Assembly (NCBI GenBank): GCA_016201795.1
Contig: JACQCF010000002.1
Location: 45,122 to 109,121, forward strand
Length of the DNA stretch: 64,000 nucleotides
Source of the DNA: Candidatus Omnitrophota bacterium
GTDB taxonomy: Bacteria; Omnitrophota; Gorgyraeia; Zapsychrales; Fredricksoniimonadaceae
Reading direction: 5' to 3'
The translations under genes and the position numbers were made by a program. The notes beneath the pieces are model-generated. The model did not search any database, had not been told where the DNA came from, and saw only the letters and a list, made by a program, of their open reading frames with translations. Each line of letters begins with the position of its first letter. Position 1 is the first letter of the stretch. This document shows positions 10,100 to 29,036 of this stretch, piece by piece.

Positions 10100-10935
10100 A
10101 AGTCAGCGCCTTTACCATTGTCCGCAACGCGGTCAAGTTCCATTACCCCATCGCTCAGTCCATACAATCGATTTTGCCCATTTGCGATGAATTTATCGTC
10201 AATGTGGGCGATAGCGAGGATAGAACGCTGGATTTGATCCGCTCCATCCCAAGCTCCAAAATTCGTATTATCCAAACCCAATGGAATATGAGGAAGGGCT
10301 CGATGGTCCTTTCCGAACAGACCAACATCGCCCTGAAAGAATGCAGAGGGGATTGGGCATTTTATCTGCAAAGCGATGAGGTGATCCACGAAAATGATTT
10401 GTCGCGCTTGAAGCAATGGATGCAGCGTTTCTTGAAAGTTGACGGAGTGGATGCCTTGCGTTTTAAATGGCTGCATTTTTACGGTAGTTATTGGCGCTAC
10501 CGCATTGATGCGGGGTGGTATCAGAAACAAGACCGTATTATCCGTAACAACGGCCAGATCGAATCCTATGGGGATGCGTTTGCGTTTAGGCGTCGTGACG
10601 GGCGGCCGCTATGCAGCCGGCCAACGGGGTGTTTATTGTACCATTACGGCTGGGTCAATACCGTCGAAGATATGAAGGGCCGCTGCCATAATGCGGCGCA
10701 AATCGGTTATCAGGATGCAAACAAATTACAATCGTTGGAAGGCGGTTGGGGAGACTTGAGCCGTTTCCCGGCGTATTTTGGTACGCATCCATTGGTCATG
10801 AAGGACTTGATTGCCAGGCATGCCCTCAGCGTGCAGGATTGGGCAAGTGTCAGCCGTCAATTTTGGTGGAACCCTCTGTTTTGGATGCGCCTGCGGCACA
10901 AGACATCCCGGCGTATCAGAGAGAAAATCACATGA
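10096..10935 (+). CDS. Putative GT-A fold glycosyltransferase (GT2-like)
   Basis: N-terminal FTIVRNA...IVNVGDSED resembles GT2 N-termini. A weak call. Confidence 0.4.
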   Translation: MKVSAFTIVRNAVKFHYPIAQSIQSILPICDEFIVNVGDSEDRTLDLIRSIPSSKIRIIQTQWNMRKGSMVLSEQTNIALKECRGDWAFYLQSDEVIHENDLSRLKQWMQRFLKVDGVDALRFKWLHFYGSYWRYRIDAGWYQKQDRIIRNNGQIESYGDAFAFRRRDGRPLCSRPTGCLLYHYGWVNTVEDMKGRCHNAAQIGYQDANKLQSLEGGWGDLSRFPAYFGTHPLVMKDLIARHALSVQDWASVSRQFWWNPLFWMRLRHKTSRRIREKIT

Positions 10936-12623: not shown

Positions 12624-13237
12624 ACATGAAATTGCATGTGGGCTGTGGGACTAATAAAATACCCGGGTGGGTCAATATCGACGCTGTTGAAAGCTGCCAG
12701 CCCGATCTTATCCATGATTTAAGCAAGCCCCTGCCTTACCCCGATTTGTCAGCGGACGAGCTCAGGGCTGAGAGCGTTCTGGAACATTTCGACAAATACA
12801 TGAGGTATTGCGTGTGCAGTGACTGGGTAAGGGTGTTGAAGGTAGGAGGGTTTATCCATATAGGCGTGCCGGATTTCAAAAAGCTGCTGTTTCGTTTTTT
12901 TAAATTCCGTTTTGATGATTTCGTCGACACTTTTTTCGGCGAGAATATGTGGGAGTCAGAAATTTATATCGGGCATTTCGGCAATCATAAATGGGGGTAT
13001 TCACAAAAGTCCTTAACGGCATTTCTGGGGCAATTCGGCATTGAACCGGTGGAGGTCAAAACCATAGGGTTAAATATTCATTTTGTAGGTCGTAAACTTA
13101 AGCATGTGTCCACCCGGGACATGGACCAGTGGAAGATTTATTCTCATAACAACAAATTCGGCGCACCCCGTCATTACCTGACGTTCGCCGAGGTTAAAGC
13201 GAAAATCAATGAGTTTCAGAAAGATTCTGCTTATTAA
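12620..13237 (+). CDS. Class I SAM-dependent methyltransferase
   Basis: HVGCG...ESVLEHFD motifs. Paralogous in position and motif to 9377-10099. Confidence 0.6.
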   Translation: MNMKLHVGCGTNKIPGWVNIDAVESCQPDLIHDLSKPLPYPDLSADELRAESVLEHFDKYMRYCVCSDWVRVLKVGGFIHIGVPDFKKLLFRFFKFRFDDFVDTFFGENMWESEIYIGHFGNHKWGYSQKSLTAFLGQFGIEPVEVKTIGLNIHFVGRKLKHVSTRDMDQWKIYSHNNKFGAPRHYLTFAEVKAKINEFQKDSAY

Positions 13238-14261
13238 TCCTTACGGCATCGGGGATGTGTTGTTTACCACTCCCGTTGTGGGCAATTTGCGTAAAAGCTA
13301 TCCGCAGGCTTTTATTGGCTATATCGCTAACCGTCGGGCTTTGCCGGTGGTGGAAAGCAATCCCAAAATCAATCACGTTTATGTGTATGAGCGTGATGAA
13401 TTTAAGGACGATTTTGTCCGTCGCTGGGTGAGTCTTTTTCAAGATATACGACGACAAAAATTCGATGTTGTTTTTGATTTCTCTTTGAATGCTTCCTTTG
13501 GATTTTTGAGCATGATTTGCGGCATAAGCAAGCGTATTGGTTATGATTACCGAGGTCGGGGCTGGCTTTTAACGGATAAAATTCGGTTAGAAGGCTATGA
13601 AGCAAAGCATGTGGTGGAATATTATCTGGATTTATTGACGAAACTTGACGTACCGGTGCAAGATCGCTCTTTGGAGTTTTTGATTGACCAGCAACATCAG
13701 CAATGGGCTAAAGATTGGATTAAAACCAAAGGGATTTCATCCAATCAACCAATCATTGCCCTCATCCCTGGCGGGGGAGCCAGCTGGGGCAAGGATGCCA
13801 GCCAGAAACGCTGGCCCGCCGGGCAATACGCGCTTTTGGTGGATAAAATTATTGCAAAATCAAACAGCGCCGTTATACTGATGGGCGATCAAAAAGAGCA
13901 GTTGTTGTGTCAAGAATTTGCCCGCCGATGCTCTTATCCCGTCTTTGATGCGGTTGGAGGTACAACCCTTTTGCAGATGGCTGCCTTACTGCAACAATGC
14001 CGTCTGGCGATTGTTAATGACGGAGGACCTTTGCATGTGGCGGTGGCGTGCGGTGTCAAGACGGTTTCTATCTTTGGTCCGGTGGATCCGGTGGTTTACG
14101 GCCCCTACCCATCGTCGGGACATATTTTTATTCAAAAAGGACTGCCTTGCCAGCCGTGTTACCGTCAGTTTCGCCGGGCCGCCTGTAACCATATCAGCTG
14201 TTTGAGGGACTTATCAGTCGATGAGGTTTACGATAAAGTAGAGAGATTTTTAGTTGATTGA
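13209..14261 (+). CDS. GT9 family heptosyltransferase (ADP/GDP-heptose:glycan heptosyltransferase)
   Basis: N-terminal KILLINPYGIGDVLFTTPV and C-terminal GNDGGPLHVAVACGVKTVSIFG motifs of RfaF/WaaC-like enzymes. Confidence 0.75.
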   Translation: MSFRKILLINPYGIGDVLFTTPVVGNLRKSYPQAFIGYIANRRALPVVESNPKINHVYVYERDEFKDDFVRRWVSLFQDIRRQKFDVVFDFSLNASFGFLSMICGISKRIGYDYRGRGWLLTDKIRLEGYEAKHVVEYYLDLLTKLDVPVQDRSLEFLIDQQHQQWAKDWIKTKGISSNQPIIALIPGGGASWGKDASQKRWPAGQYALLVDKIIAKSNSAVILMGDQKEQLLCQEFARRCSYPVFDAVGGTTLLQMAALLQQCRLAIVNDGGPLHVAVACGVKTVSIFGPVDPVVYGPYPSSGHIFIQKGLPCQPCYRQFRRAACNHISCLRDLSVDEVYDKVERFLVD

Positions 14262-14302
14262 GTCCCGAGCCTGTCGAGGGATAGAAAGGTCGAGGCATTA
14301 TT

Positions 14303-15403
14303 ATGAGCGTTCCGTTTATTGATTTTAAAGAACAACACCGCCTGATCCAAAACGAGGTGGATACGGGTTTTAAAAAAGTTTTTGAAAAAGGCGATTATAT
14401 TTTAGGCGAGCAAGCTGTTATCTTCGAGGGCGCTTTTGCTAAATATTGCGATTGTGCTTATGGGGTGGGTGTCAATTCCGGTACCGACGCGTTGTATTTG
14501 GCCCTTTGCGCATTGGATATTGGCCCAGGTGATGAAGTGATTGTGCCTACCTTCACTTTTATTGCTACGGCATTGTGCGTTTCGTTTTGCGGTGCTCAAG
14601 CGGTGTTCGTCGACGTTGAGCCGGATACTTACAACATTGACCCTCAGGCATTCGCCAGGGCCATTACCAAGAAAACTAAAGCGGTGATTCCAGTGCACAT
14701 CTATGGTCAGCCGGCGAACATGAATGAAATCTCTGCCATTGCCCGCAAGCACGATATTAAGGTGGTTGAGGATGCAGCTCAGGCCCATGGTTCGCGTTAT
14801 CAGGGCAAGCGCGCGGGATCCCTGGGGGATGTGGCGTGTTTCTCTTTTTATCCGACCAAAAGTCTGGGCGCTTGCGGGGATGCCGGAATGATTGTCACCA
14901 ACGACAAGGCGATTTATCAGAAGGCGCTGATGCTGCGCGATTACGGCAGAAAGGGCCGTTATGAACATAAGATTAAAGGGCATAATTCCCGTCTGGATAC
15001 TCTGCAAGCGGTGGTGCTCAATGCCAAATTAAAACATCTGGATGCATGGAATACTTTACGCGCCCAAAACGCTGTTTATTACAATGAGCTTCTTAAAGGC
15101 GTCAAAGGCGTGGTCACGTCGGTTGTCAAAAGTGACCGTACCCACGTTTATCAGACGTATGCCGTGCGGGTGGCCAACCGCGATAAGGTCATGGAAGGGA
15201 TGAAGGCCAAAGGAATCAGCGTCCTTATCCATTATCCGATTCCTCTACACCTTCAGGAAGCCTATCAAGAGTTAGGTTATCAAAAAGGAGCTTTTCCCTT
15301 CGCGGAAGCCGTGGCTGATGAGATCATGTCTTTGCCGATGTTTCCTCACATGAGCAGGGAGCAAATTGAAACCGTGGTGAGGGCTTTGAAAGAATCTTTA
15401 TGA
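14303..15403 (+). CDS. DegT/DnrJ/EryC1/StrS family aminotransferase
   Basis: GTDALYLAL, VPTFTFIAT, EDAAQAHGS and the Lys-containing FSFYPTKSLGA motif. Confidence 0.8.
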   Translation: MSVPFIDFKEQHRLIQNEVDTGFKKVFEKGDYILGEQAVIFEGAFAKYCDCAYGVGVNSGTDALYLALCALDIGPGDEVIVPTFTFIATALCVSFCGAQAVFVDVEPDTYNIDPQAFARAITKKTKAVIPVHIYGQPANMNEISAIARKHDIKVVEDAAQAHGSRYQGKRAGSLGDVACFSFYPTKSLGACGDAGMIVTNDKAIYQKALMLRDYGRKGRYEHKIKGHNSRLDTLQAVVLNAKLKHLDAWNTLRAQNAVYYNELLKGVKGVVTSVVKSDRTHVYQTYAVRVANRDKVMEGMKAKGISVLIHYPIPLHLQEAYQELGYQKGAFPFAEAVADEIMSLPMFPHMSREQIETVVRALKESL

Positions 15404-16752
15404 ACAAGGCTTTGCATATTTGCGACAGGTTGATGTACGGCGCTTTGCTGGTGCTGGTAATTTTTATTCCCTATTCGCTGGCCATGATCGAAGCATGTCT
15501 GTTGACGATAATACTAGCTTGGGTACTGAAACATTGGTTATTATGGAAAGCCAATCCACAACGAGGATTTTGGGCGGCCTATCGTTTTTCGCCCAGCGGG
15601 ATGGAATGGCCCTTAATCGTCATAGGGTTTCTCATCGTTGCGACCTTACCGTGGAGTCATGCTCCTGCTTTGAGTTTAAAGAAATTCTTCTCAAGGTTTC
15701 TGCAGCAGGCATTTTTGATGTATGCCGTCGTTGAGATTGTCAAGACCCATCGGCGTTTATACGGGGTCATGGCAACCTTATTGCTGACGCTTTTTGTGGT
15801 CAATGCGGATATTTTTGTGCAGTATATGCGAGGCTACAGTTTTATTTATCATACCCCGCTGACGTCTGGGCGGGTGTTGGGGCCGATGCATCACCCCAAT
15901 GATTTGGGGACGTTGCTGGTGATGGTGTTGCCTGTGGTGTTGGCTTTGATCATCACACACCGTTATTGGATTCCATTGTTATGGTCTCGTGCGACGCAGG
16001 TGTCCCGTGGCTTATGCACCATGGGGACGGTGGCGGAGGTGGTGTTGTTTTTACTATTGGTCATCGCGCTTGGGTTAACGGCTTCGCGGGGGGCATGGAT
16101 AGCTTTTGCGGTGAGCATGGTTGGCCTAGGCGTTTGTTTGAAACGGTATTGGTCAACTGTTTTACTTATTTTGATGCTGGTTGTGGTATTTTGGGTCTTT
16201 TGGGGACATAGCCTGCATCAGCGTCATGATATTCAAGATGTTTCTTTAGGAACTCAGACTAAGTACAGCAGTATAAGCCTATCTCCCCAGTATGAGAAGA
16301 GTCTGTTGGTTTTTTTCAATCCTTCGGGCCGGTATTTCTATTGGGAAACAGCTTGGGATATTATTAAACGTTATCCGCTGTTTGGCTGCGGCTATAGCGC
16401 TTATGTCCAGACGCTCAATGTTTTGAAGGCGGGGCACGCGGAATATCCTCACAATATCTTATTGCATATTACGGCGGAACTTGGTCTCTTTGGTTTGCTG
16501 GCGCATCTATGGTTTTTTACAGCTTTATATTTATGTGCTAGGAGAGTGTTGCGTGCGGTTTTCTCTGCCTATGATTTGTATATACTCGGATGCGGGATAT
16601 GTTTTGGACTTTTGGCGTGGATAATCCATAGTCTGACAGATACGGCTTGGACATCTTTGCAGTTGAGCATCTTATGGTGGTTATTGATAGGGATTTTGTT
16701 GAGCCTTGTCTCTGTTTTTCATCAATCAACATCGCCACGGGGAGGTTCCTAG
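15400..16752 (+). CDS. O-antigen ligase / Wzy-like polymerase family membrane protein
   Basis: Multi-TM protein with the O-antigen ligase domain signature (GRYFYWETAW...YPHNILLHITAELGLFGLL). Confidence 0.7.
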   Translation: MNKALHICDRLMYGALLVLVIFIPYSLAMIEACLLTIILAWVLKHWLLWKANPQRGFWAAYRFSPSGMEWPLIVIGFLIVATLPWSHAPALSLKKFFSRFLQQAFLMYAVVEIVKTHRRLYGVMATLLLTLFVVNADIFVQYMRGYSFIYHTPLTSGRVLGPMHHPNDLGTLLVMVLPVVLALIITHRYWIPLLWSRATQVSRGLCTMGTVAEVVLFLLLVIALGLTASRGAWIAFAVSMVGLGVCLKRYWSTVLLILMLVVVFWVFWGHSLHQRHDIQDVSLGTQTKYSSISLSPQYEKSLLVFFNPSGRYFYWETAWDIIKRYPLFGCGYSAYVQTLNVLKAGHAEYPHNILLHITAELGLFGLLAHLWFFTALYLCARRVLRAVFSAYDLYILGCGICFGLLAWIIHSLTDTAWTSLQLSILWWLLIGILLSLVSVFHQSTSPRGGS

Positions 16753-17537
16753 TGTCCTTGCCATTGAGTATTATCATTATTGCCAAAAATGAGCAGGAGC
16801 GTATCAAAGATTGTCTTGAAAGCGTGCATGGATGGGCCAATGAAATCATCGTCGTTGATGATCACAGTACAGACCAGACGCGTTCGATGGCTGCTGCGTA
16901 TACTGACAAGATTTTCCAGCGGGCGATGGATTTGGAAGGCCGACAGCGCAATTTCGCAGTTTCCCATGCCAGCAATGATTGGGTGATGATGCTCGATTGT
17001 GACGAGCGTCCCACCCCTGAACTTAAAGGAGAGATCGAGGATTTGCTTGGCCACCCTCCGGAAAAAATCGTAGCGTTTTGGATACCGCAAATTTGTTTTT
17101 TAGGAGATGTGCATATCAAATACGGAGGATGGTCCAATCCACATATCCGTTTGTACCACAAGAAATACGTGACCTGGAGCGAGGCTGCCTGTGATGTGGT
17201 TCATCCGGGGGTGCGTGTGGCGCCCGGTTACGGGGGAGCAAATTTGAAACAGGCGCTTATCCATTACAACTATAAGAATGTCGAGGATGTCATCCGCAAG
17301 ACAAATCGTCTCACCACCCTGGAGGCCATCAAATGGCACCTCGATGGGCGCAAGATGACGCAGGGGCGCGCGATGTGGCGTACCGTGGATAGGTTTTTCC
17401 GTCGTTATGTGGGACGCAAGGGGTATAAGGATGGTTATTACGGTCTGGTGCTGGCGGTATTTAGCGCCGTGTATGAGTTCGCCGCGTACAGCAAATACAA
17501 GGAAATCAAAGAAAAAGGCTATTACCTTAAACCATGA
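16752..17537 (+). CDS. Family 2 glycosyltransferase
   Basis: LSIIIIAKNEQERI...VVDDHSTDQT GT2 signature. A probable GTG start at 16752 overlaps the upstream stop (TAGTG), with GGAGG 7 nt upstream. The ORF-track ATG at 16647 would overlap the ligase gene by about 100 nt. Confidence 0.7.
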   Translation: MSLPLSIIIIAKNEQERIKDCLESVHGWANEIIVVDDHSTDQTRSMAAAYTDKIFQRAMDLEGRQRNFAVSHASNDWVMMLDCDERPTPELKGEIEDLLGHPPEKIVAFWIPQICFLGDVHIKYGGWSNPHIRLYHKKYVTWSEAACDVVHPGVRVAPGYGGANLKQALIHYNYKNVEDVIRKTNRLTTLEAIKWHLDGRKMTQGRAMWRTVDRFFRRYVGRKGYKDGYYGLVLAVFSAVYEFAAYSKYKEIKEKGYYLKP

Positions 17538-18121
17538 AAGTAGTTTTTCTTGACAGAGACGGCGTGATTAACGAATTTCCGGGTAAAGACAATTACGTGA
17601 CGAAAGTCAAAGACTTTCATTTTATTCCCGGAGCGGCGGAAGCCATCGCGCGCCTCAGCCAGGCAGGATATAAGATTTTTGTGATTTCTAATCAGGCTGG
17701 CGTGGGTAAAGGGGTTTATTCGCTGGACAAACTCAATCGTATCAACCGTTATATGATGAAGCATGTTGAGGCTGCCGGCGGAGAAATCCGAAAAAGTTTT
17801 TACTGCACCCACCGCGCCGATGCGGGCTGCGACTGCCGCAAGCCAGGCATAGGTCTTTTAAAGAAGGCGCTTCAATCTCTCAATAAAACCATTGCCCATG
17901 CGCAAAAGGCTTTTTTCGTTGGTGATACCGAAGGCGATATTAAAACCGGCCATAATGCCGGATGCAAAACGGTTTTTGTGCTTTGTGGGCGTGAAAGCCG
18001 CCGGCATATGCGTCAATGGCACATCAAGCCCGATTTTATCGCTTCGGATTTAAAAACCGCGGTTGACATTATCCAACATGAAAATTCTGGTCATTCACGC
18101 CACAGCAGGGGCCGGGCATAA
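17534..18121 (+). CDS. gmhB: D-glycero-D-manno-heptose 1,7-bisphosphate phosphatase (HAD-IIIA)
   Basis: FLDRDGVIN HAD motif I, and GVGKG plus the C-rich zinc site CDCRKPG typical of GmhB. Confidence 0.75.
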   Translation: MKVVFLDRDGVINEFPGKDNYVTKVKDFHFIPGAAEAIARLSQAGYKIFVISNQAGVGKGVYSLDKLNRINRYMMKHVEAAGGEIRKSFYCTHRADAGCDCRKPGIGLLKKALQSLNKTIAHAQKAFFVGDTEGDIKTGHNAGCKTVFVLCGRESRRHMRQWHIKPDFIASDLKTAVDIIQHENSGHSRHSRGRA

Positions 18122-19160
18122 AAAGGCGGCAGAGGCCATTTATAATGGCCTGTTGCGCCACACCACGCATATTGTCCGTTTGGTGGATTCCCTCGATTAT
18201 ACCAATCCTTTTTTTAAAGCCGCGTATCCTAAGACCTATGTCTTTTTAGTCACGAAACTTCCGATGCTCTGGGGATTTTTCTTTTGGCTTTCCGATCTTG
18301 CTTTATTACAACCGTTGATACGCTGGATCAGGCGCTGTTACAATGCTTCAAATACTAAGGCGCTGGAGAAATTTTTGAAAGATGAAGATTTTGATGCCAT
18401 TATTGTGACTCATTTTATGTCCGCGGAGGTTGGCGCTTATTTAAAACGCACCCGGCAGATCCGTGCGAAGGTGATTTGTGTGGTGACAGACTTTAATGTA
18501 CATCGTATTTGGATTAATCAGGGTACTGATCTTTACACGGCGGCTTGCGATGACACCAAAGAGAAAATCATCAGCCTTGGAATCAGCCCTGATCAGGTGT
18601 TCGTGACCGGTATTCCCACCGACGAAAAATTTACTGTGATGACTGATCGTCGTCAGATAAGAGAAGCTCTTAAAATTGATCCACAGCTTTTCACGGTGCT
18701 TTTAGCCACGGGCTCTTTCGGGGTCGGCCCTATGGAAGAACTGGTGGATTTGCTCAAAGGTTATCAGCTGCTCATTGTTTGCGGACATAATCGCCTTTTG
18801 TACGAACGCCTTAAATCCAGAATTAATAGCAAGGTTCACGTATTTGGTTTGGTCAACAATATGCATGAACTGATGTCTGCGGCGGATGTCATGGTCACTA
18901 AACCAGGAGGACTCTCCATCGCCGAAGCTCTGGTCAAAAGGCTGCCGATTATTTTTTTTAGTGCCATTCCCGGACAGGAGACTGGCAACATTAAAGTGCT
19001 TCAAAAGTACCAGGCGGCCTCACCGCAAGGATCTTTGATGGATATCGTCGATAAAATTGATGATTTAAGTTCTTCCCTGCAAGTTTACGAGGCCATGCAA
19101 AAGAAGCTTGAGGCGCTTGCCAAACCTGATGCGGTACGGGACATTATTTCATTAATATGA
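18078..19160 (+). CDS. GT28 family glycosyltransferase (MGDG-synthase / UgtP-like diacylglycerol or lipid glycosyltransferase)
   Basis: N-terminal MKILVIHATAGAGHKKAAEAI (MGDG_synth domain) and a C-terminal GT28 region. The start is ambiguous (18063 or 18078) and overlaps the end of gmhB. Confidence 0.55.
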   Translation: MKILVIHATAGAGHKKAAEAIYNGLLRHTTHIVRLVDSLDYTNPFFKAAYPKTYVFLVTKLPMLWGFFFWLSDLALLQPLIRWIRRCYNASNTKALEKFLKDEDFDAIIVTHFMSAEVGAYLKRTRQIRAKVICVVTDFNVHRIWINQGTDLYTAACDDTKEKIISLGISPDQVFVTGIPTDEKFTVMTDRRQIREALKIDPQLFTVLLATGSFGVGPMEELVDLLKGYQLLIVCGHNRLLYERLKSRINSKVHVFGLVNNMHELMSAADVMVTKPGGLSIAEALVKRLPIIFFSAIPGQETGNIKVLQKYQAASPQGSLMDIVDKIDDLSSSLQVYEAMQKKLEALAKPDAVRDIISLI

Positions 19161-19311: not shown

Positions 19312-21108
19312 ATGATTGCCCAAGTTGTTTTTGATCTGCCTTTAGAAGGCCCTTTCGATTATCTGATTCCTTCTTCCTTAAAATCTTCCATCGCTCCTGG
19401 TTTGCGCGTGAACGTATTGTTAGGCACTAAAAAACGCACAGGCCTGGTGACGGGTTTATTAGAGCAAAGTTCTTTTGAAAATTTAAAATCTATTAAATCT
19501 GTCATCGATGAAAAACCACTGTTAGATCAAGCCCAGATGGATTTAGGATCAGATTTGAGCCGTTATTACGGCTGTTCTTTGGGAGAGGCGCTTTTTACTA
19601 TTTTACGCGGATCTTCTGTTATTGAATCAAGTGTCATTGCGAGGAGCGAAGCGACGAAGCAATCTAATAAGATTGCCACGCTCCCTGCGGTCGCTCGCAA
19701 TGACAACAATGACAAACTAACACTACATGTTGTTCCTTCAGGAGATTATGTACCCATTCTGGTTTCTGTCATGAAACCTTTGGTGCAAAGAAAGCAGCGG
19801 GTATTGATTTTAGGGCCGGATCAGTTTGCCGTCCAAGCGATACAGGAGGCCTTAAAGAAATATTTCTCCAAAAATGATTACTTCATCGGCGCAAGATCAA
19901 TGGTGTTTCGTTCTTTGATGGGCATAGCTTTGGTGATGATGGTCGATGAGGACAACCCTTCTTATAAACAGGAACAAACTCCCCTCTATGAAACCCGTCA
20001 GGTACTTTTGATGCGCGCCAAGAGGGAGAATATCGATGTTGTCTTTATCAGCGCTACCCCGTCGGTGGAAATCATGGATTTGGTACACAAAGGCAAAATT
20101 CATCTCAAGAACTATCCGGCCAGGGGTCTGGTCAAACCGCAGGCCGTTGATTTAAATAATTACAAAATACTTTTGAAGGGGCTTTTGTCGCCGGCGGTTT
20201 TGTCAGCGCTTGAACGCAATGTCTCTGGCGGGACAAAATCGATTTTAGTGTTTAATCATCGCGGTTCTTATGCGGTCACCCGTTGCAGCGAGTGTGGTTT
20301 TGTACTCAAATGCGGGCGTTGTGACAGCCCCATGCTCTACTGGCGAGCCAAGAAACAATACTTCTGCCGCCATTGCTCTTTTCATTGTGAGCCAGACATT
20401 GTTTGCCCTCATTGCCAGGTGCCCAGTTGGAAATCTTTTGGTCTTGGCATTGAGCCATTGCAAAAAGCCTTGCAGGAAAAGTTTCCGACGTCAAGGATCC
20501 TGACTTTTGAGAGGCGCTCGCCACAGATTTTAAAGGATTATGATATTCTCGTCGGTACTTCGGCGCTTTTGCGGTTTAAATATCAGATACAAGCCGCACT
20601 GGTGGTGCTTTTGGATATCGATGAGGAACTTAATCGTTTGGACATACGCTCCTGTTTTCGTGCTTTTAGTCTGGCCGGGCATTTAAGAGGTATGGCCCAG
20701 GGACAGTTTTTGATTCAGACTCGTCATCCCAACCATTATGTGATCAAATCCTTTAGCGAAGATGACGCGGATATCTTTTACCGCGAAGATATGCGTATCC
20801 GCCGGGAACTGGCACTTTGCCCGTTTGGCCATCAGGTGATGATTCACCTGCGCTCTTTGCAGCAAAAACTGGGCCAACAAGCAGCGCAAGAACTTTATCA
20901 AGCATTGAACTCTTTGTCGTCCCCGAATGTTTCTATGAAGATTCACGCCCCCGTGGCGGAAGCGGTGGCTAAAAAGCGGGATCAATATCGTTTGAATATT
21001 CTGGTGCAAGGCGAGGATGTTATTGATATGATAGCCTTTATTAAAAAAGCCATGAGGCAGACCAAACGCCGCAGTAAGGTCATAGTAGTTTTAAATGTTG
21101 ATCCGTAG
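19312..21108 (+). CDS. Primosomal protein N' (PriA) homologue with degenerate helicase motifs
   Basis: Colinear with PriA: an N-terminal 3' DNA-binding domain, a helicase core and the Cys-rich zinc region (CSECGFVLKCGRCDSPM...CRHCSF...CPHCQ). Walker A reads VVPSGDY instead of GxGKT, motif II reads DEDN instead of DEEH, and motif VI reads LAGHLRG instead of QxAGRAGR. Confidence 0.75.
   Translation: MIAQVVFDLPLEGPFDYLIPSSLKSSIAPGLRVNVLLGTKKRTGLVTGLLEQSSFENLKSIKSVIDEKPLLDQAQMDLGSDLSRYYGCSLGEALFTILRGSSVIESSVIARSEATKQSNKIATLPAVARNDNNDKLTLHVVPSGDYVPILVSVMKPLVQRKQRVLILGPDQFAVQAIQEALKKYFSKNDYFIGARSMVFRSLMGIALVMMVDEDNPSYKQEQTPLYETRQVLLMRAKRENIDVVFISATPSVEIMDLVHKGKIHLKNYPARGLVKPQAVDLNNYKILLKGLLSPAVLSALERNVSGGTKSILVFNHRGSYAVTRCSECGFVLKCGRCDSPMLYWRAKKQYFCRHCSFHCEPDIVCPHCQVPSWKSFGLGIEPLQKALQEKFPTSRILTFERRSPQILKDYDILVGTSALLRFKYQIQAALVVLLDIDEELNRLDIRSCFRAFSLAGHLRGMAQGQFLIQTRHPNHYVIKSFSEDDADIFYREDMRIRRELALCPFGHQVMIHLRSLQQKLGQQAAQELYQALNSLSSPNVSMKIHAPVAEAVAKKRDQYRLNILVQGEDVIDMIAFIKKAMRQTKRRSKVIVVLNVDP
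19633..19703 (+). mobile_element. MITE-like palindromic repeat element inserted in frame within the priA-like CDS (copy 1)
   Basis: GTCATTGCGAGGAGCGAAGCGACGAAGCAATC...GCTCCCTGCGGTCGCTCGCAATGAC has terminal inverted repeats and a near-identical copy at 35103-35193. It encodes the low-complexity insert VIARSEATKQSNKIATLPAVARND. Confidence 0.7.
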
Positions 21109-22083: not shown

Positions 22084-23070
22084 ATGCCTCAAATACGTAA
22101 AGATTTCATCGTCAATCGTTGGGTGATTGTGGCTACCGAGCGGGGGCGTCGTCAGGCCGCGTTTGTGAGTCCGGTCAATCAGCAAACAGATCCTCACGAT
22201 TGTCCGTTTTGTCAGCCGATCGCTGACACTCCGCTTTTAGCCAACGACCGGGTGAGGGTTTTTAAAAGCGGCACACCTTTTTTTGTGGATGGAAAGCCTT
22301 TCAGCCGCCAGAGGCATGGCTTGTATGAAGTTTCTTCCAGCTGGGGCAGTCACGAGGTAGTTTTGGAAACCACTGATCACGTGGCCAATATGTCTGACTT
22401 GGCCCTTGAGGATATTCAGAAGGTTTTTGAAACCTATGCCCAGCGGATGCGCCTGCACCGCCAGGATCCGTCGATTCGTTATGTATTGGCTTACAAAAAT
22501 TACGGGGTTGCTGCCGGCAGCCGTCCTATCGGGCATGCCCGTTCGCAGATTATGGCTATTCCCGTTAATCCCGTGCGCGTCAAAGATAAAATCAGCGGCG
22601 CCAAACGTTATTTCGATTTTCATGAACGCTGCCTGTTTTGCGATTTGATTGATCAGGAACGTAAAGACGGCCAGCGCTTGATTCTGGAAAATGGAGAATT
22701 TTTGGCGCTGATGCCATTTGCCTCGCGGTTTCCTTTTGAAGTCTGGATTGTGCCCAAACGCCATTGTTGTGATTTTGCCCAAGGGATTACCGGCTATGAA
22801 GGTCAGTTGGCTCAAATAATCAAAGAACTTTTGCTGCGTTTTAAAGTGGGCCTTAATGACCCGGCTTATAATTATCTGATTCAGTCCGCTCCTTTTGAAG
22901 ATGGTGGCGGGTACAAAGAATACCCGACCATTGAAGAAGATTATCACTGGCATATCGAATTACTGCCGCGGTTAATGCGAGTGGCTGGTTTTGAGCGCGG
23001 GACAGGATTTTATATTAATCCCATTCCACCGGAGATGACGGCAGAGTTTTTAAGGGAAGTGAAAATTTAA
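22084..23070 (+). CDS. Galactose-1-phosphate uridylyltransferase-like HIT-superfamily protein (paralog 1; nucleophilic His replaced by Arg)
   Basis: CPFC zinc motif. The HxHxQ active-site block reads GHARSQ, so the position of the nucleophilic His (E. coli GalT H166) is Arg. Confidence 0.65.
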   Translation: MPQIRKDFIVNRWVIVATERGRRQAAFVSPVNQQTDPHDCPFCQPIADTPLLANDRVRVFKSGTPFFVDGKPFSRQRHGLYEVSSSWGSHEVVLETTDHVANMSDLALEDIQKVFETYAQRMRLHRQDPSIRYVLAYKNYGVAAGSRPIGHARSQIMAIPVNPVRVKDKISGAKRYFDFHERCLFCDLIDQERKDGQRLILENGEFLALMPFASRFPFEVWIVPKRHCCDFAQGITGYEGQLAQIIKELLLRFKVGLNDPAYNYLIQSAPFEDGGGYKEYPTIEEDYHWHIELLPRLMRVAGFERGTGFYINPIPPEMTAEFLREVKI

Positions 23071-23073
23071 TCC

Positions 23074-24072
23074 ATGCCTCAACTGCGTCGAGACCCAATA
23101 GTAGGCCGCTGGATAGTGATCGACAGCGATCATCCCAAAGAGCCAAAAGATTTTCCCAAAGAAGATCAAACGCCGTCTCATGCCGCGGTATGTCCGTTTT
23201 GCCCGCAGCGGGAGAGCCGCACGCCGCCAGAACTGGATGCCGTACGCCCCAACGGATCCGGGCCTAATACCTCTGACTGGCAGATACGCACTATACCTAA
23301 TAAGTTTCCCGCTTTGGTTCATGAAGAGCCTATGGAAAAAGAAGGGATAGGGATGTTTGATGTGATCTCCGGCTACGGCGCCCATGAGGTGGTTATTGAA
23401 ACGCCTGATCATAACAGACAAATGGCGGATCTCACCATCCAGGAATTGGTACTTGTTTTAAATCAATACCAGCGTCGCTATAAAGCTTTAGCTTCTGATG
23501 CGCGGCTAAAATACATCGTGATTTTTAAAAATTTCGGCCCCTCCGCCGGAGCGACCATCGAGCACAGCCATTCGCAGGTCATTGCTTTGCCCATGGTGCC
23601 CAAAACGGTGTTGGAAGAAATAGAGGGGGCTGAGCATTATCATCTGAGCCACGGTGCTTGTGTGTTTTGCACGATGTTAGCCCAAGAATATCAAGACAAA
23701 GATCGTCTGATATCAGAGAATAATTCTTTTGTTAGTTTTTGTCCGTTCGTGCCGCGGTATGCTTTTGAGACGTGGATGATGCCCAAAGCCCATCAGGCGC
23801 ATTTTGCCGATCTCAATGAGCAGGGAGTTCATGATCTGGCTTCTGGGCTTTTGGATACGTTAAACCGCATCAAAAAATGTTTATCGAACCCATCCTATAA
23901 TTTTTATTTGCATACCTCACCGATCAATTACGGCCGGCCCAACTGTTACCACTGGCACATTGAAATTATCCCCAAATTGACCCGCAGCATCGGTTTTGAA
24001 TGGGGCACGGGCTTGCACATTGTGCCGACGTTTCCCAATGAAGCCGCTCGGTATTTAAGGGACGCTAGATAG
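23074..24072 (+). CDS. Galactose-1-phosphate uridylyltransferase-like HIT-superfamily protein (paralog 2; intact HxHxQ)
   Basis: CPFC zinc motif and an intact EHSHSQ (HxHxQ) motif. In tandem with paralog 1, with a 3-nt gap. Confidence 0.7.
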   Translation: MPQLRRDPIVGRWIVIDSDHPKEPKDFPKEDQTPSHAAVCPFCPQRESRTPPELDAVRPNGSGPNTSDWQIRTIPNKFPALVHEEPMEKEGIGMFDVISGYGAHEVVIETPDHNRQMADLTIQELVLVLNQYQRRYKALASDARLKYIVIFKNFGPSAGATIEHSHSQVIALPMVPKTVLEEIEGAEHYHLSHGACVFCTMLAQEYQDKDRLISENNSFVSFCPFVPRYAFETWMMPKAHQAHFADLNEQGVHDLASGLLDTLNRIKKCLSNPSYNFYLHTSPINYGRPNCYHWHIEIIPKLTRSIGFEWGTGLHIVPTFPNEAARYLRDAR

Positions 24073-24110
24073 TTCTTGAAAGTTTATAGGGCCGGTTATA
24101 CAATTCAACT

Positions 24111-24479
24111 ATGTTTCAACGATGGATAGTTATCAGCGTAATAGCAAGTTTTCTTTTTATCTTACTGACAACGGCTTGGGATTATTGCCCCGCGAAACCG
24201 GGCCATCATTTCACGCCACGACTTTCTTCTATTTACGGTAATCAGTTTAAAGCCGTCCATCATCCGTGCACTTCACTCAAAGATGTTTATGAGATGTTGT
24301 CTGGTGTCTTCAGCATTGTCCCATCGGTGAACAAGGAGTCTCTAACTCTGCCGCTGATGGCGGCAGTTTTTTCTCTATCAATCAAGCATTCTCCTCATGC
24401 GTATGATCGTCCACCACCGTTAGCTTCTCCTCCATCAGCAGTTCCTTTGTTTCAACTCTACTGCAATCTCCGCATTTAA
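24111..24479 (+). CDS. Hypothetical small protein with an N-terminal hydrophobic segment
   Basis: The ORF sits in a 520-bp gap between GalT-2 and the RND gene, with an N-terminal TM/signal-like stretch (IVISVIASFLFILLTTAW). No recognisable motifs. It may be non-coding. Confidence 0.2.
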   Translation: MFQRWIVISVIASFLFILLTTAWDYCPAKPGHHFTPRLSSIYGNQFKAVHHPCTSLKDVYEMLSGVFSIVPSVNKESLTLPLMAAVFSLSIKHSPHAYDRPPPLASPPSAVPLFQLYCNLRI

Positions 24480-24593
24480 TCTCTTCTAACAAATAAGAGA
24501 GAGAAAACTCTTGATGGGCTGATTCTGTCTTTTTTTTGCGTCATTTTTTCTTTTTTATCAACTATAGATTTTGAAAAATGGGGTGCATTAAAT

Positions 24594-27500
24594 ATGAAAC
24601 TTGAAGAATTCTCACTCAAACAGCCACATTGGGTTATTGTCGGGGCCCTTTTGGTGGTTATTATTGGCGTAGTCTGCATGACCAGGCTCCCTAAAGATAT
24701 TTTACCCATTTTTAAAATTCCGGCCGTACAAATCATTACGTTTTACCCGGGAATGCCCGCGGAGGTCGTCGAGAAAGATATGACCACCCGCCTTGAACGC
24801 TGGACGGGTCAATCCAATGGAATAGCCATGCAAGAATCCAAATCCATGATTGGGGTGAGCATCCTGAAAGATTTTTTTCGATCCGATATTGATCCAAATA
24901 CCGCCATGTCGCAGGTCACGTCCTTTGCGATGTCCGATCTTTATTATCTGCCACCGGGGACAATTCCTCCGATGGTTATGCCTTTTGATCCGACGGCAAG
25001 CATTCCATTGGCTCTTTTGACCGTTGAGAATCCTGACATGAATGAAACCCAGCTTTATGACGTGGCGTATTTTAATTTGCGCAATATGCTTCAGGGCATC
25101 CCCGGTGTCATTGCGCCGGCGGTTTACGGCGGTAAGCTCCGTCGTATTTTGGCCTATATTGATCCCTACAAAATGACCCAGCTCAATGTTTCAGGACTTG
25201 ATGTTGTTCAAGCTCTTCTTGAGTCCAATGTCATGATTCCCACGGGAAACGCGAAGTTCAAAGACAAGGACTATCAAATCATTACCAATGCCATGCCCGA
25301 GAACGTTGATACCATGAACCAATTTTTGATAAGAGGAGAAAATGGCGTTCCAATAACAATAGGAGACGTGGGAAAGGTCGAAGACAGTCATCAAATCCAG
25401 ACCAACGTGGTTCATATCGCGGGTAAACGGCAGGTCTATATTCCTATCTACAGACAGCCAGGCGCCAATACGATTCAAATTATTGACAGCATGAAATCTG
25501 CCATCCAATCCCTGTTAGAACGGCTCCCCAGGGGAATGAGTTTGAAAATTGTCGCCGATCAATCGCAGTTTGTTCGCCAGTCGATCAAAAGTATTTATAG
25601 TGAAGTGGGGTTGGGAGGCGTTTTGGCTTCCCTGGTTGTCTTGATTTTTTTAGGAAGCTTGCGAGCTTCTTTCGCTGTTTTTCTTTCTATTCCTCTTTCC
25701 ATCTTGACGTGTTTTATCGCTCTTTATGCCACAGGAGAAACGATTAACGCAATGACGTTAGGAGGATTGGCTTTGGCCGTTGGAATCCTCATTGATAATT
25801 CCGTGGTTGTTTTGGAGAATTCGATCCGTCATTTCAAAATGGGGAAACCCATTCGGCAAGCCATTTTAGAGGCCACAGGTGAAGTGGCGATGCCTGTTCT
25901 GGCGGGTACGGTCTGTATTATCATCGTATTTATTCCCATTATTTTTTTTACCGGAATCGGTAAGTTTCTGTTTACGCCTTTAGCAAAAAGCGTGGCTTTT
26001 TCCGTCTTGGCCTCTTATGTGGTTTCTATGACGATCATTCCATTATATTGTGTGAGATTTATTTCAGAAAAGCATCGTGAAAAATCATCAGAAAAGGGAC
26101 ATGAAGGAAGATTCAATCGGTTTGCCCAGCGTTACCAAAAGTCCCTTTCTTCTCTAATGAAGATAAAAGGTGTTGTTATTTTTGCGGCGGTCATACTTTT
26201 TTGTGCCAGTCTCTTTCTTTATCCGTTCATCGGGAAAGAGCTTTTCCCTCGTTCAGATGTCGGTTACTTGACCCTTTATTTACATCTTCCGACCGGAACT
26301 CGTATTGAAAAAACCGAAGAGACCATGAAAAAAGTTGAACAGAGTTTAAATAATCTAATCAACACCAATAACATTGACACGATGATCACGAATATCGGCG
26401 TTTTATATGATTGGCCAGCAGCCTATACGCCCAATTCAGGCCCCGGAGATGCGTTTGTTGAATTGGAATTATCGCATAAAAAGAAATTCTCAACGGAGGA
26501 ATATGCAACTAAGATTCGGGAATTATTTAAGCGGGAATACCCGGATATCCAGATTGCCATTAATACGGGGGGGCTCATTACGGCTGCTCTTAATATGGGA
26601 CTTAGTTCGCCGATTAATATTCAAGTCGAAGGCAAGGACTTAAAGACTTCGATGCCGATTGCCGAGGAAATTGTTAAGCAAGCAAAGGAAGTTAAGGGAG
26701 CAGTTGACGTCAGGATTCAGGAGCATCTTGATTATCCACAAATTGAAATTGAATTAGACCGTGCTGTGATTGCCGAGAAGCGTATGACCGTTGAAGAGGT
26801 CGTCAAAAACATCGTAACGGCGCTTAATTCCAGCGTCAATTTCAAAGCATCATTCTGGATCGATCCTAAAAATGGGAACCATTATTTTCTTGGAGCGCAA
26901 TATCCTGAGGAATTAATTAAGAGTATAGAGACGTTGGAAAATCTCCCATTGACAGGAAAGAATCAGAAACAGATCGTCCTTTTAAAAGAGATTGCCAAAT
27001 TCAAAGAAACTTCGGCTCCATCGGAAATTAGGCATAGAAACATTCAGAGGGTTGTGAATATTTTTGTCAACACCAGCGGCCGGGATGTGGGGGCAGTCGC
27101 TTCCGAGATCAGCCAGCGTATCAAAGATATTAAATTGCCGGATGGATATCGCATTAATGAACGGGGAGAAGTTCAATCAATGCAGGAGTCGTTTCAAAAC
27201 CTCGGCGGCGGTCTGATGTTGGCTGTGATTTTGGTTTACCTCGTCTTGGTCGGGCAGTTTCGTTCATTCCGCGATCCCTTATTAATTCTCATCGCTGTTC
27301 CGATGGGGTTGATCGGAGTTCTACTGACATTGTGGTTAACCAAAACAACGCTTAATGTTCAATCTTTTATTGGAATTATTTTTATGGTGGGGATTGCTGT
27401 TTTAAACGGTATTCTCCTTATTGAATTTGCCAATCGCTTAAAAAGTGAAGGGCAAAGTGCTCAAGAGGCCGTAATTAATGCGGCCGGAGTCCGATTGCGG

Positions 27501-29036
27501 CCTATCCTTATGACGACATGTGCCGCTTTGTTTAGCTTGCTTCCTATGGCTATTGGGTTGGGGCATGGTTCTGAAGCTAATGTACCTTTAGGACGTGCTG
27601 TGGTCGGAGGACTTTCGGTTTCCGCAGTATTGACGTTGATCATTCTTCCCTTGCTTTACGTTCTTGTTGAAAAAATGAAGTTTTCTAAAACCAGCAACCC
27701 TCTGGTTAAAATCATGTTTATATTTTTTGTTATGAGCTTCATCTCAACCACTACCTTTGCTGAAGATGCGCAGGCTTCTGCCAAAGGGAAAGTTTTAACA
27801 CTGCAAGAGGCGTTGGAAAAATCGCTCAGTCAAAATCCTAAGATCATGATCGCCAAAGCCAAGACCGCCCAAGCCCAGGCGGAGGTTGATATGGCTAAGT
27901 CAGGGTATTGGCCGCGGCTGAATTTATCGGCAATGGATAGCTACGGTCTTGGGAGTTCTTCATCAGCCATCGGAATCACAGGAGTTGTCAATTCTACTCA
28001 CCGTAAAGGCGGTGCCGTTGGGGTAGATAGCGCCTGGACGATTTATGATTTCGGTCGCACCTCCAATAAGGTACAGGCCGCTCGAGAGGAAGCCCAGGCC
28101 CAGGATAAGGACATGGAACGGCAAATGGCGCAGATAAAGCTTATGATTAGCCGTACCTACGGGGAATGCGCGTTTTATACAGGATTCAATCATCTTTTGA
28201 CAGATAGGATAGAACGCCAAAAGCTCCTGGTTGAGGAAATTCAAAAATACACCCGTTCGGGCTTAAATTCTCAGGTCGATCTAAAATTGATGCAGGCGGC
28301 TTTTGAAAAAACTCGTGCTATACAAAGAGAATCCGAGGGATTTTTATATCAGTCCATCGATAAACTTAAAGAGTGGATGGGAGACTCTCATATGGAATCA
28401 TTTGTCTGTGTGCCTTTGCCTGAGATATCCACAGAAGTTCTAGCGTTAGATGCATTGATTACGCAGGCATTGAAGGAACGTCCGGAAATCAAAACAGCCC
28501 AAAAGCATTATGAAGCGGCACAGGCTTCCCGGTGGTCAGCAGAAGGTGAGCATGCACCAAAGATTGTAGCGGTCTCAAGTGTCGGTGAATTAGAGAAGAC
28601 CGACCCAGCTGGGGGGGATCAATGGTCGGCCGGTATCGGGGTTACGGTGCCTTTTTTCGATGGATTTCTAACCGAGGCTAAAATCGCCAAGGCCAAAGCG
28701 CAAGAGGCGGAAGCCAAAGCCTCCTTGGAAGAGGTACGTAATCAGATCCAGCAGGAAGCAGCTTCCTCTTATGCCCAATGGCAAGCAGCCCAACAGATGC
28801 GTCCAATAGTAGAGAAACAATATCAATTAACGAAAGAGGCTTATGATTTGGCGCATCACCGCTATACCGGGAAAATGGGAACGTTTATCGATTTACAAAA
28901 TGCCGAATCTGCTTTTGCTCAAGCCCAGCAGGAAAGTCTGAAGGCACAAATTCAGGAACGGCTGTCTTATTATCAGCTTTTTATTGTTAGCGGAATGAGC
29001 GTGTCCGTTGTCAAAGACAGTGATCAAAATAGATAG
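24594..29036 (+). CDS. RND (AcrB/HAE-family) inner-membrane permease fused in frame to a TolC-like outer membrane efflux protein
   Basis: Residues 1-1027 have 12 TM helices with two large periplasmic loops (AcrB/CzcA fold). From the ATG at 27675 there is a signal-peptide-like MKFSKTSNPLVKIMFIFFVMSFISTTTFA, then a two-repeat OEP/TolC domain. There is no stop codon between the two parts. Confidence 0.75.
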   Translation: MKLEEFSLKQPHWVIVGALLVVIIGVVCMTRLPKDILPIFKIPAVQIITFYPGMPAEVVEKDMTTRLERWTGQSNGIAMQESKSMIGVSILKDFFRSDIDPNTAMSQVTSFAMSDLYYLPPGTIPPMVMPFDPTASIPLALLTVENPDMNETQLYDVAYFNLRNMLQGIPGVIAPAVYGGKLRRILAYIDPYKMTQLNVSGLDVVQALLESNVMIPTGNAKFKDKDYQIITNAMPENVDTMNQFLIRGENGVPITIGDVGKVEDSHQIQTNVVHIAGKRQVYIPIYRQPGANTIQIIDSMKSAIQSLLERLPRGMSLKIVADQSQFVRQSIKSIYSEVGLGGVLASLVVLIFLGSLRASFAVFLSIPLSILTCFIALYATGETINAMTLGGLALAVGILIDNSVVVLENSIRHFKMGKPIRQAILEATGEVAMPVLAGTVCIIIVFIPIIFFTGIGKFLFTPLAKSVAFSVLASYVVSMTIIPLYCVRFISEKHREKSSEKGHEGRFNRFAQRYQKSLSSLMKIKGVVIFAAVILFCASLFLYPFIGKELFPRSDVGYLTLYLHLPTGTRIEKTEETMKKVEQSLNNLINTNNIDTMITNIGVLYDWPAAYTPNSGPGDAFVELELSHKKKFSTEEYATKIRELFKREYPDIQIAINTGGLITAALNMGLSSPINIQVEGKDLKTSMPIAEEIVKQAKEVKGAVDVRIQEHLDYPQIEIELDRAVIAEKRMTVEEVVKNIVTALNSSVNFKASFWIDPKNGNHYFLGAQYPEELIKSIETLENLPLTGKNQKQIVLLKEIAKFKETSAPSEIRHRNIQRVVNIFVNTSGRDVGAVASEISQRIKDIKLPDGYRINERGEVQSMQESFQNLGGGLMLAVILVYLVLVGQFRSFRDPLLILIAVPMGLIGVLLTLWLTKTTLNVQSFIGIIFMVGIAVLNGILLIEFANRLKSEGQSAQEAVINAAGVRLRPILMTTCAALFSLLPMAIGLGHGSEANVPLGRAVVGGLSVSAVLTLIILPLLYVLVEKMKFSKTSNPLVKIMFIFFVMSFISTTTFAEDAQASAKGKVLTLQEALEKSLSQNPKIMIAKAKTAQAQAEVDMAKSGYWPRLNLSAMDSYGLGSSSSAIGITGVVNSTHRKGGAVGVDSAWTIYDFGRTSNKVQAAREEAQAQDKDMERQMAQIKLMISRTYGECAFYTGFNHLLTDRIERQKLLVEEIQKYTRSGLNSQVDLKLMQAAFEKTRAIQRESEGFLYQSIDKLKEWMGDSHMESFVCVPLPEISTEVLALDALITQALKERPEIKTAQKHYEAAQASRWSAEGEHAPKIVAVSSVGELEKTDPAGGDQWSAGIGVTVPFFDGFLTEAKIAKAKAQEAEAKASLEEVRNQIQQEAASSYAQWQAAQQMRPIVEKQYQLTKEAYDLAHHRYTGKMGTFIDLQNAESAFAQAQQESLKAQIQERLSYYQLFIVSGMSVSVVKDSDQNR

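Follow-up and report, generated by a model that had tools for sequence, protein, structure and literature searches.

Why should a bacterium carry, side by side, two genes of the galactose-1-phosphate uridylyltransferase (GalT) type when one of them lacks the catalytic histidine of the family? The question is raised by a locus in a 64,000 nt stretch of a metagenome-assembled Candidatus Omnitrophota genome (assembly GCA_016201795.1, contig JACQCF010000002.1, positions 45,122 to 109,121 of the forward strand), here called the window, whose own numbering is used below. An earlier note had described two adjacent GalT-like paralogues that both retain a CPFC motif, with HARSQ in the upstream protein (P1) where the downstream one (P2) has HSHSQ, and this is borne out by the open reading frames (ORFs), by Pfam and by a BLASTP match of 34 % identity over 343 columns (E-value 1e-74), which is far beyond chance. 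The note had also suggested an active/inactive heterodimer, and conservation of the tandem across the phylum, together with complementary losses in the two proteins, leads us to favour that suggestion. As far as the sequences can tell, we consider it reasonably probable that P1 and P2 are obligate partners in a heterodimer that has a single composite active site, with P1 as the pseudoenzyme member.

The P1 gene (22084..23070, + strand; 328 amino acids, MBI3601338.1) and the P2 gene (23074..24072, + strand; 332 amino acids, MBI3601339.1) lie exactly where the earlier note had placed them and share a reading frame. At the junction (23068..23076, + strand) the P1 stop codon TAA is followed by TCC and the P2 ATG, and this 3 nt spacer is consistent with coupled translation. 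Stop-codon readthrough to a P1–P2 fusion was considered and rejected, since the two genes are in the same frame in the window but their spacing among species runs from −8 to +3 nt and more. Both GalT Pfam halves (PF01087 and PF02744) are matched above the gathering score by each protein, and the closest solved relative of both is Arabidopsis At5g18200 (P1, 2e-51; P2, 3e-69), followed by the archaeal uridylyltransferase 6K5Z and then by the Escherichia coli and human GalTs. An AlphaFold2 monomer model of P1 (mean predicted local distance difference test score, pLDDT, 84.8; predicted template modelling score, pTM, 0.85) retrieves the same proteins when compared with the PDB by Foldseek; At5g18200 comes first (E-value 7e-24, template modelling (TM) score 0.73–0.80), followed by the archaeal, E. 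coli and human enzymes, and TM scores across these structures are 0.7–0.8. NCBI names both proteins 'galactose-1-phosphate uridylyltransferase', and homologues in other genomes are named likewise or as 'DUF4921 family protein'. The NCBIfam galT model TIGR00209 (cut-off 102.1) is passed by P2 with a score of 119 and not by P1 (77.7), and both proteins fall below the cut-off of 448 for PRK11720 (126.4 for P2 and 101.7 for P1).

The arginine of P1 falls at the position of the nucleophile, as the earlier note had claimed. The P1 HARSQ motif (22534..22548, + strand; residues 151–155, context GHARSQ) keeps the zinc-ligand His151 and Gln155, with Arg153, encoded by CGT at 22540–22542, in the nucleophile column; the corresponding P2 motif, HSHSQ (23563..23577, + strand; residues 164–168, context EHSHSQ), retains the zinc-ligand His164, the nucleophile His166 and Gln168, all three present in 76/76 members of the P2 clade. 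Arg153 is aligned with At5g18200 His186 in phmmer matches to 1Z84 and 2H39, the latter being the H186G mutant, whose glycine ('hsGsq') occupies the Arg153 column, and a MAFFT alignment that includes E. coli GalT sets Arg153 in the column of His166. The remainder of the metal-binding framework is present in both proteins. The CPFC motif (22201..22212, + strand, in P1) occupies residues 40–43 in P1 as well as in P2 and supplies the first zinc-site cysteines, equivalent to E. coli Cys52 and Cys55; this predicted zinc site comprises C40, C43, H99 and H151 in P1 and C40, C43, H113 and H164 in P2 (E. coli C52, C55, H115 and H164), and is conserved at 97–100 % in the two clades. The second Cys-x-x-Cys/His/His site (P1 C183, C186, H227 and H288; P2 C196, C199, H240 and H293; At5g18200 C216, C219, H255 and H310) and the GFExGTG loop (GFERGTG in P1, GFEWGTG in P2) are 95–100 % conserved in both. 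Judged by these motifs, P1 is a member of the fold, and not a catalytic member, of the class I GalT-fold HIT proteins, and P2 has every hallmark by which a catalytic class I GalT or At5g18200-type enzyme would be recognized, with the exception of two arginines in the N-terminal arm.

The replacement is no local accident. A homologue scan with one genome per species gave 577 matching stretches, and the locus counts that follow refer to the best 80 of these, all from Omnitrophota. A P2 orthologue follows a P1 orthologue on the same strand in 80/80 loci, usually in the order priA–fmt–P1–P2, and the two genes are spaced by −8 to +3 nt in 57 of them. The earlier note had named conservation of the arginine variant in orthologous tandem pairs as a check, and the arginine is indeed conserved: the nucleophile column of the 81 P1 copies holds Arg in 76, His in three and Cys in two, whereas that of the P2 orthologues is His in all 76. 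Arginine is kept at 97 % in the main P1 clade, H-x-R-S-Q is present in 119 of the 120 best database homologues of P1 (53–100 % identity), and the arginine codons are mostly CGT or CGC, one transition away from the histidine codons CAT and CAC. Neighbour joining separates the P1 proteins from the P2 proteins as two clades whose internal groupings match. Mean pairwise identity over 73 species is 0.592 for P1 and 0.579 for P2, and the two sets of distances are correlated (r = 0.93); P1 is thus as constrained as P2 and is not decaying, and its ORF is intact in 80/80 species. A HARSQ-type P1 with P2 in tandem is therefore a fixed trait across the phylum. We note that many of the loci (L004, L008–L010, L012–L014 and others) have record titles reading 'uncultured Planctomycetales bacterium'; they have the priA–fmt–P1–P2 order and 45–65 % identity to the window P1, their neighbours in the ranking are titled Omnitrophota, and the titles are probably a labelling artefact of the submitting pipeline.

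The two proteins depart from their relatives in complementary ways. From 5860 relatives found by an exhaustive HMMER search we took as reference 111 canonical single-domain representatives with H-x-H-x-Q, among which 74 alignment columns are at least 80 % conserved. Both P1 and P2 keep 48 of the 74, among them Gln168, the KNxG segment, the GFExGTG loop and the full complement of eight residues that make up the two Cys-x-x-Cys/His/His sites. Only P1 has lost the nucleophile, the counterparts of E. coli Asn77 (replaced by Ser) and of Cys160, and much of the loop that follows the first CxxC; in the window P1 this loop is largely deleted. The Asn77 position lies in the segment SGTP (22267..22278, + strand), which stands in place of the canonical N-x-[FY]-P, with Ser62 at the position of E. 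coli Asn77 and At5g18200 Asn94; the canonical Asn is found in 11 % of the P1 clade. The P1 N-terminal arm, ATERGRRQ (22132..22155, + strand), has Arg20 and Arg23 as the counterparts of E. coli Arg28 and Arg31 and human Arg48 and Arg51, whereas both are lost from the P2 arm, DSDHPKEP (23122..23145, + strand), which has His20 and Glu23. These arm arginines, equivalent also to At5g18200 Arg41 and Arg44, are present in 100 % and 95 % of P1 proteins and in 92 % and 84 % of canonical relatives, compared with 1 % and 0 % of P2 proteins, in which they are exchanged for His, Asp, Asn or Glu. The difference is also seen without an alignment, a search for R..[RK]P within the first 40 amino acids finding it in 75/81 P1 and 0/76 P2 sequences, and in the mean net charge of the arm, which is +2.05 in P1, +1.41 in canonical relatives and −1.03 in P2. 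The C-terminal GFERGTG loop of P1 (22987..23007, + strand) is the counterpart of the E. coli and human GalT segment holding the hexose in the site of the partner chain, and is 99–100 % conserved.

The meaning of this partition depends on where the residues act. Both At5g18200 and the class I GalTs form homodimers whose active sites are situated between the two chains (bioRxiv 10.64898/2026.09.13.751320). In human GALT the glucose-1-phosphate site is made of residues 334–346 of one chain and Gln188 and Asn173 of the other, and Arg48 is on the chain opposite to Gln188; E. coli Arg28 and Arg31 touch bound UDP-glucose, and the positions lost from P1 only belong, in the E. coli and human enzymes, to the nucleotide pocket of the same chain, with the uridine contacts Phe53 and Val61 in the post-CxxC loop (PMC5081055). 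On this cross-chain geometry, the arm arginines and the C-terminal loop of P1 and P2 would act on the partner's site. By sequence, P1 is then without the within-chain set and has kept the cross-chain set, and P2 is the reverse so far as the arm is concerned. Each protein falls short of the full At5g18200 complement of nucleophile and arm arginines, and together they hold one full set, so that pairing P1 with P2 would give a single complete site; two P1 chains would be without a nucleophile, and two P2 chains without arm arginines.

We propose that the pair is a nucleotidyltransferase of the HIT type, similar in kind to At5g18200 (ADP-glucose phosphorylase). Each site would be built across the dimer: the zinc-held H-x-H-x-Q and the nucleotide pocket would come from one chain, and the arginines of the N-terminal arm, together with the hexose-binding loop of the C-terminus, from the other. 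Following an ancient duplication these duties would have been divided between the copies, P2 keeping the nucleophile and nucleotide pocket and losing the arm arginines, P1 keeping the arm arginines and C-terminal loop and losing the nucleophile (His to Arg) and the nucleotide contacts. The single working site would combine the core of P2 with the arm and loop of P1, and nucleotidyl transfer there would pass through a His166–nucleoside monophosphate intermediate. The other pocket would be dead, with Arg153 of P1 probably facing the acidic arm of P2, a contact whose geometry we take by analogy from human Gln188 and Arg48; for the galactosemia variant Q188R, a clash with Arg48 of the other chain has been proposed (PMC5081055). 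A salt bridge between Arg153 and the P2 arm could fill the empty phosphate site and favour the mixed dimer over either homodimer, a P1 homodimer being disfavoured as Arg would face Arg, and may be the reason that arginine, rather than just any residue, is kept at that position. The only low-confidence parts of the P1 monomer model are the arm (residues 1–7 and 12–25) and the GFERGTGF loop (residues 302–309; pLDDT below 50 in the GFERGTG segment), which are among the most conserved residues of P1, as might be expected of stretches that take on order only once they pack on a partner. From the complementary losses and the conservation of the tandem, physical heterodimerization of P1 and P2 appears most likely.

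Pairs of a similar kind occur elsewhere in the family. Protein P0167 (locus L088), placed beside the P1 clade in the tree, has H-N-N-C-N at the motif and no first CxxC, and keeps an RAKRP arm and an intact C-terminal half; its gene lies 1 nt upstream of a canonical paralogue without arm arginines, in the order S1–tyrS–[pair]–gap–pgk, and P0167 represents a sister lineage in which degeneration has been taken further than in P1. In P0121 (599 amino acids) the same gene order is found with the pair fused and the canonical module without any arm, although this is a single contig and weak as evidence; MAFFT set all single-module sequences on its C-terminal half. Two longer proteins, P0211 (969 amino acids; L085/L086, 4001–6910) and P0244 (1018 amino acids), join a canonical HPHSQ module by a long linker to a nucleophile-less one with HPTWQ or HLNWQ. 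Related lineages carry Cys, His, Ser, Asn or Tyr at the nucleophile column, or have even lost the first zinc site. The earlier note had allowed that the pair might belong to a subfamily in which this residue simply varies; among 134 single-domain representatives of the subfamily the column is His in 119, and the other 15 are scattered degenerate paralogues, so that case does not apply.

Three further degenerate proteins are P0139 (L081, 4001–4999; H-S-I-A-E), P0166 (L090, 85–1092; H-T-Y-S-Y) and P0259 (L091, 2658–3680; H-P-Y-S-E), which have unrelated neighbours; P0139 and P0259 are also without arm arginines. Two general rules that we tried were dropped: that a canonical relative without arm arginines adjoins a dead paralogue fails for P0126, P0171 and P0148 and does not hold generally outside this lineage, and that all nucleophile-less relatives are paired fails for P0139, P0166 and P0259.

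Several observations weigh against the composite-site heterodimer. The cross-chain role of the arm arginines is known from E. coli and human GalT and is extended to At5g18200-type enzymes by analogy. P2 also keeps its GFEWGTG loop, for which a strict one-site model has no need. Canonical relatives without arm arginines (P0126, P0171 and P0148, on contigs that are partly short) are solo genes, as are the nucleophile-less P0139, P0166 and P0259 on their contigs, and neither loss alone therefore proves the need for a neighbouring partner. If P1 is simply dead, conservation of its arginine at 97 % would need the additional idea of the salt bridge, which rests on analogy. Lastly, five P1 orthologues do not have arginine. 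Three (L029, 439–1410; L040, 2057–3094; L048, 4001–5038) have HSHSQ, HAHSQ and HTHSQ respectively; they have altered KNxG loops and are nested within the Arg clade of the neighbour-joining tree, that of L029 also has the Asn77 equivalent, and their P2 partners are still without arm arginines. Their histidines may be reversions or the result of gene conversion from P2, the direction of change being tentative on a simple neighbour-joining tree. The other two (L035, 4001–5020; L036, 4001–5002) have H-T-C-S-H, with Cys at the nucleophile column and His for Gln, which could be an alternative state of a dead pocket or, conceivably, a thiol nucleophile.

Other accounts of the pair have to be set against these data. 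P1 might act independently of P2, whether as monomer or homodimer, and have a novel activity or ligand, its adjacency to P2 reflecting a shared pathway only; Arg153 would then bind a phosphate or sugar phosphate, or stabilize the transition state of a direct displacement. The prevalence of the arginine among P1 copies and database homologues fits this, as do the retention of both zinc sites and of Asn139, Gly145, Ser154 and Gln155, selection as strong as that on P2, and the solo nucleophile-less relatives found elsewhere. We nevertheless regard it as rather unlikely, as P1 has lost the nucleotide-contact Asn and the base-binding loop and keeps exactly the partner-acting elements, which are exactly those that P2 has lost; moreover, relatives with Cys, His, Ser, Asn or Tyr at this position, or without the first zinc site, still adjoin P2, and in a homodimer Arg153 would come close to the arginine-rich arm of the second subunit if the geometry of human Gln188 and Arg48 applies. 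The earlier note's particular version, in which P1 alone has the chemistry of the plant ADP-glucose phosphorylase, does not explain the arginine: both paralogues are nearest to the plant enzyme, that enzyme has the histidine, and P1 has lost the nucleotide contacts as well. A second possibility accepts the heterodimer and makes P1 a regulatory partner, with a remodelled pocket that would take up a metabolite and thereby adjust the P2 site, an arrangement reminiscent of GlgD and of the large subunit in plant ADP-glucose pyrophosphorylase. The phosphate and sugar contacts of the pocket (Asn139, Gly145, Ser154 and Gln155) are kept, conserved Arg153 and Arg165 have been gained, and inactive modulatory paralogues have a precedent in ADP-glucose synthesis (PMC9093745). 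No ligand can be named, however, the acidic arm of P2 may simply fill the pocket, and P0167-like relatives persist with most of it lost, so that we think a regulatory role improbable. A bolder and likewise unlikely, though slightly less improbable, idea is that the pocket senses a phosphorylated metabolite and so controls the single catalytic site of an enzyme that could, as a phosphorylase working in reverse, provide an ATP-sparing route to ADP-glucose for glycogen synthesis in Omnitrophota; if true, this would be the first regulated heteromeric HIT-family nucleotidyltransferase.

The two remaining accounts take the genes closer to face value, and we give each very little credence. That P1 is a decaying or functionless duplicate beside a P2 working alone as a homodimer agrees with the loss of the catalytic histidine, and public annotation plainly names both proteins GalT. 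It is already contradicted by the conservation data, with the P1 ORF intact throughout, divergence equal to that of P2 and the shared columns including every metal ligand, and it leaves P2 without arm arginines that most canonical relatives possess. Equally hard to credit is that P1 and P2 are active GalT isozymes of the Leloir pathway with different sugar specificities. The TIGR00209 score of P2 and the NCBI names speak for it, but P1 has no nucleophile and is below that cut-off, and both proteins are below the PRK11720 cut-off. P2 is far nearer to At5g18200 (3e-69) than to E. coli GalT (8e-21), with P1 likewise nearer to At5g18200; the hexose-binding loop is of the At5g18200 type (GFExGTG) and not the E. 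coli KFxVGYE type, and there is no galK or galE among the 20 ORFs scanned nearby.

The substrate of the proposed P1:P2 enzyme is probably a nucleoside diphosphate (NDP)-glucose such as ADP-glucose, with phosphate or a hexose 1-phosphate as acceptor, in alpha-glucan metabolism. Such a role is suggested over the Leloir pathway because the canonical relative P0201 (L096, 2361–4805; one short contig) is fused to a glycogen/starch synthase (Glyco_transf_5 and Glycos_transf_1), another, P0170, is fused to a GH57 domain, and both P1 and P2 resemble At5g18200. Phosphoglucomutase is found near the related fusions, the P0211 gene of L085/L086 lying between phosphoglucomutase and a nucleoside triphosphate (NTP)-transferase with a hexapeptide-repeat domain. 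Omnitrophota genomes have been reported to encode glycogen synthesis (PMC8542988). Against this assignment, the 20 neighbouring ORFs scanned in the window include no glycogen genes; they include no galK, galE or galM either.

The genes that do surround the pair are of mixed kinds, with lipopolysaccharide/glycan-type genes, priA and fmt upstream and a gene for an RND pump, one for a DUF255 protein, gap, metE and an MTHFR gene downstream. The priA homologue (19312–21108, + strand; 598 amino acids), orthologues of which stand ahead of fmt–P1–P2 in most of the 80 loci, matches, at E ≤ 1e-5, only two PriA domains, the 3′-DNA-binding and the C-terminal one; helicase-domain families gave no match, and no GxGKT Walker A motif is visible at the usual PriA place, where the protein reads ...VLILGPDQFAVQAI.... 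Upstream of priA (13209–19160, + strand) are genes for a GT9 heptosyltransferase, a DegT-type aminotransferase, a Wzy_C O-antigen ligase-like protein, a GT2 protein, a small HAD phosphatase and a GT28 protein resembling monogalactosyldiacylglycerol (MGDG) synthase, and this envelope-glycan run is preceded by two ORFs without a Pfam match (10746–12620 and 12620–13234). On the other side of the pair, a terminator-like hairpin (24348..24376, + strand; eight pairs, six of them G–C, then a T run) begins about 280 nt past the P2 stop codon and is likely to mark the end of the transcription unit. It lies in a 520 nt stretch (24073–24593) after P2 that gave no match in an Rfam scan and contains an ORF of 122 amino acids (24111–24479) without a Pfam match; the ORF is probably not a gene, because the strong terminator-like hairpin (24348–24366) is inside it. 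The next gene (24594–29036, + strand) encodes 1480 amino acids that combine a full AcrB-type RND transporter (ACR_tran, residues 5–1025) with a TolC-like outer-membrane channel (OEP, in two stretches, to residue 1463). An inner-membrane pump and an outer-membrane channel in one polypeptide are unusual.

The P1/P2 tandem is real, strongly conserved and mechanistically interpretable. GalT-fold HIT enzymes are homodimers with two identical shared active sites, and human galactosemia genetics, including the proposed partial dominant negativity of Q188R, rests on the shared-site homodimer. We know of no earlier pseudoenzyme partner in the GalT-fold HIT family; in the literature searched we found no published description of a heteromeric or pseudoenzyme GalT/HIT-family pair, and no natural nucleophile-less partner subunit of a class I GalT is described there. 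If the proposed heterodimer is correct, the pair would amount to a clean evolutionary dissection of the residues that act across the dimer. Metabolic reconstructions that read two GalTs or a Leloir pathway from these genes in Omnitrophota are probably wrong. Should the enzyme make or break ADP-glucose, it would also bear on glycogen handling in these very small, possibly host-dependent bacteria.

Among characterized proteins the pair is most like At5g18200 (PDB 1Z84, 1ZWJ and 2H39), with which it shares the two Cys-x-x-Cys/His/His sites, the KNxG...HxHxQ core and the GFExGTG loop; At5g18200, however, is a homodimer in which each chain has both His186 and Arg41/Arg44, whereas in the window pair these are split between two gene products. 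The E. coli (1HXP and 1HXQ) and human (5IN3) GalTs have the same fold and H-x-H-x-Q motif and likewise share active sites across the dimer, with arm arginines and a C-terminal loop from the other chain, although the class I GalTs are more distant (E-values 1e-16 to 1e-21), have another hexose-loop sequence and are homodimers with two equivalent sites. The L088 pair and the fusions P0121, P0211 and P0244 resemble the window pair in combining a nucleophile-less GalT-fold module with a canonical one, and in L088 it is again the dead copy, P0167, that has the arm (RAKRP) and the canonical copy that is without it, as in P1 and P2; the dead modules in L088 and the fusions are nevertheless far more degenerate than P1, lacking both the first CxxC and an Arg at the nucleophile position, and all are uncharacterized metagenomic sequences. 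The nearest parallel in logic comes from ADP-glucose synthesis, where GlgC and GlgD of Firmicutes and the small and large subunits of plant ADP-glucose pyrophosphorylase provide cases of an inactive, duplicated and adjacent paralogue that joins the active one and modulates or completes it (PMC9093745). P1 and P2 show an impaired paralogue, equal selection on the two copies and universal co-encoding, and would on the proposed reading assemble with each other, but this is analogy and not homology, for the GlgC/GlgD proteins have an unrelated nucleotidyltransferase alpha/beta fold, form no covalent intermediate and assemble as heterotetramers. GlgC is, moreover, active without GlgD, whereas the loss of the arm arginines from P2 suggests that P1 and P2 depend on each other.

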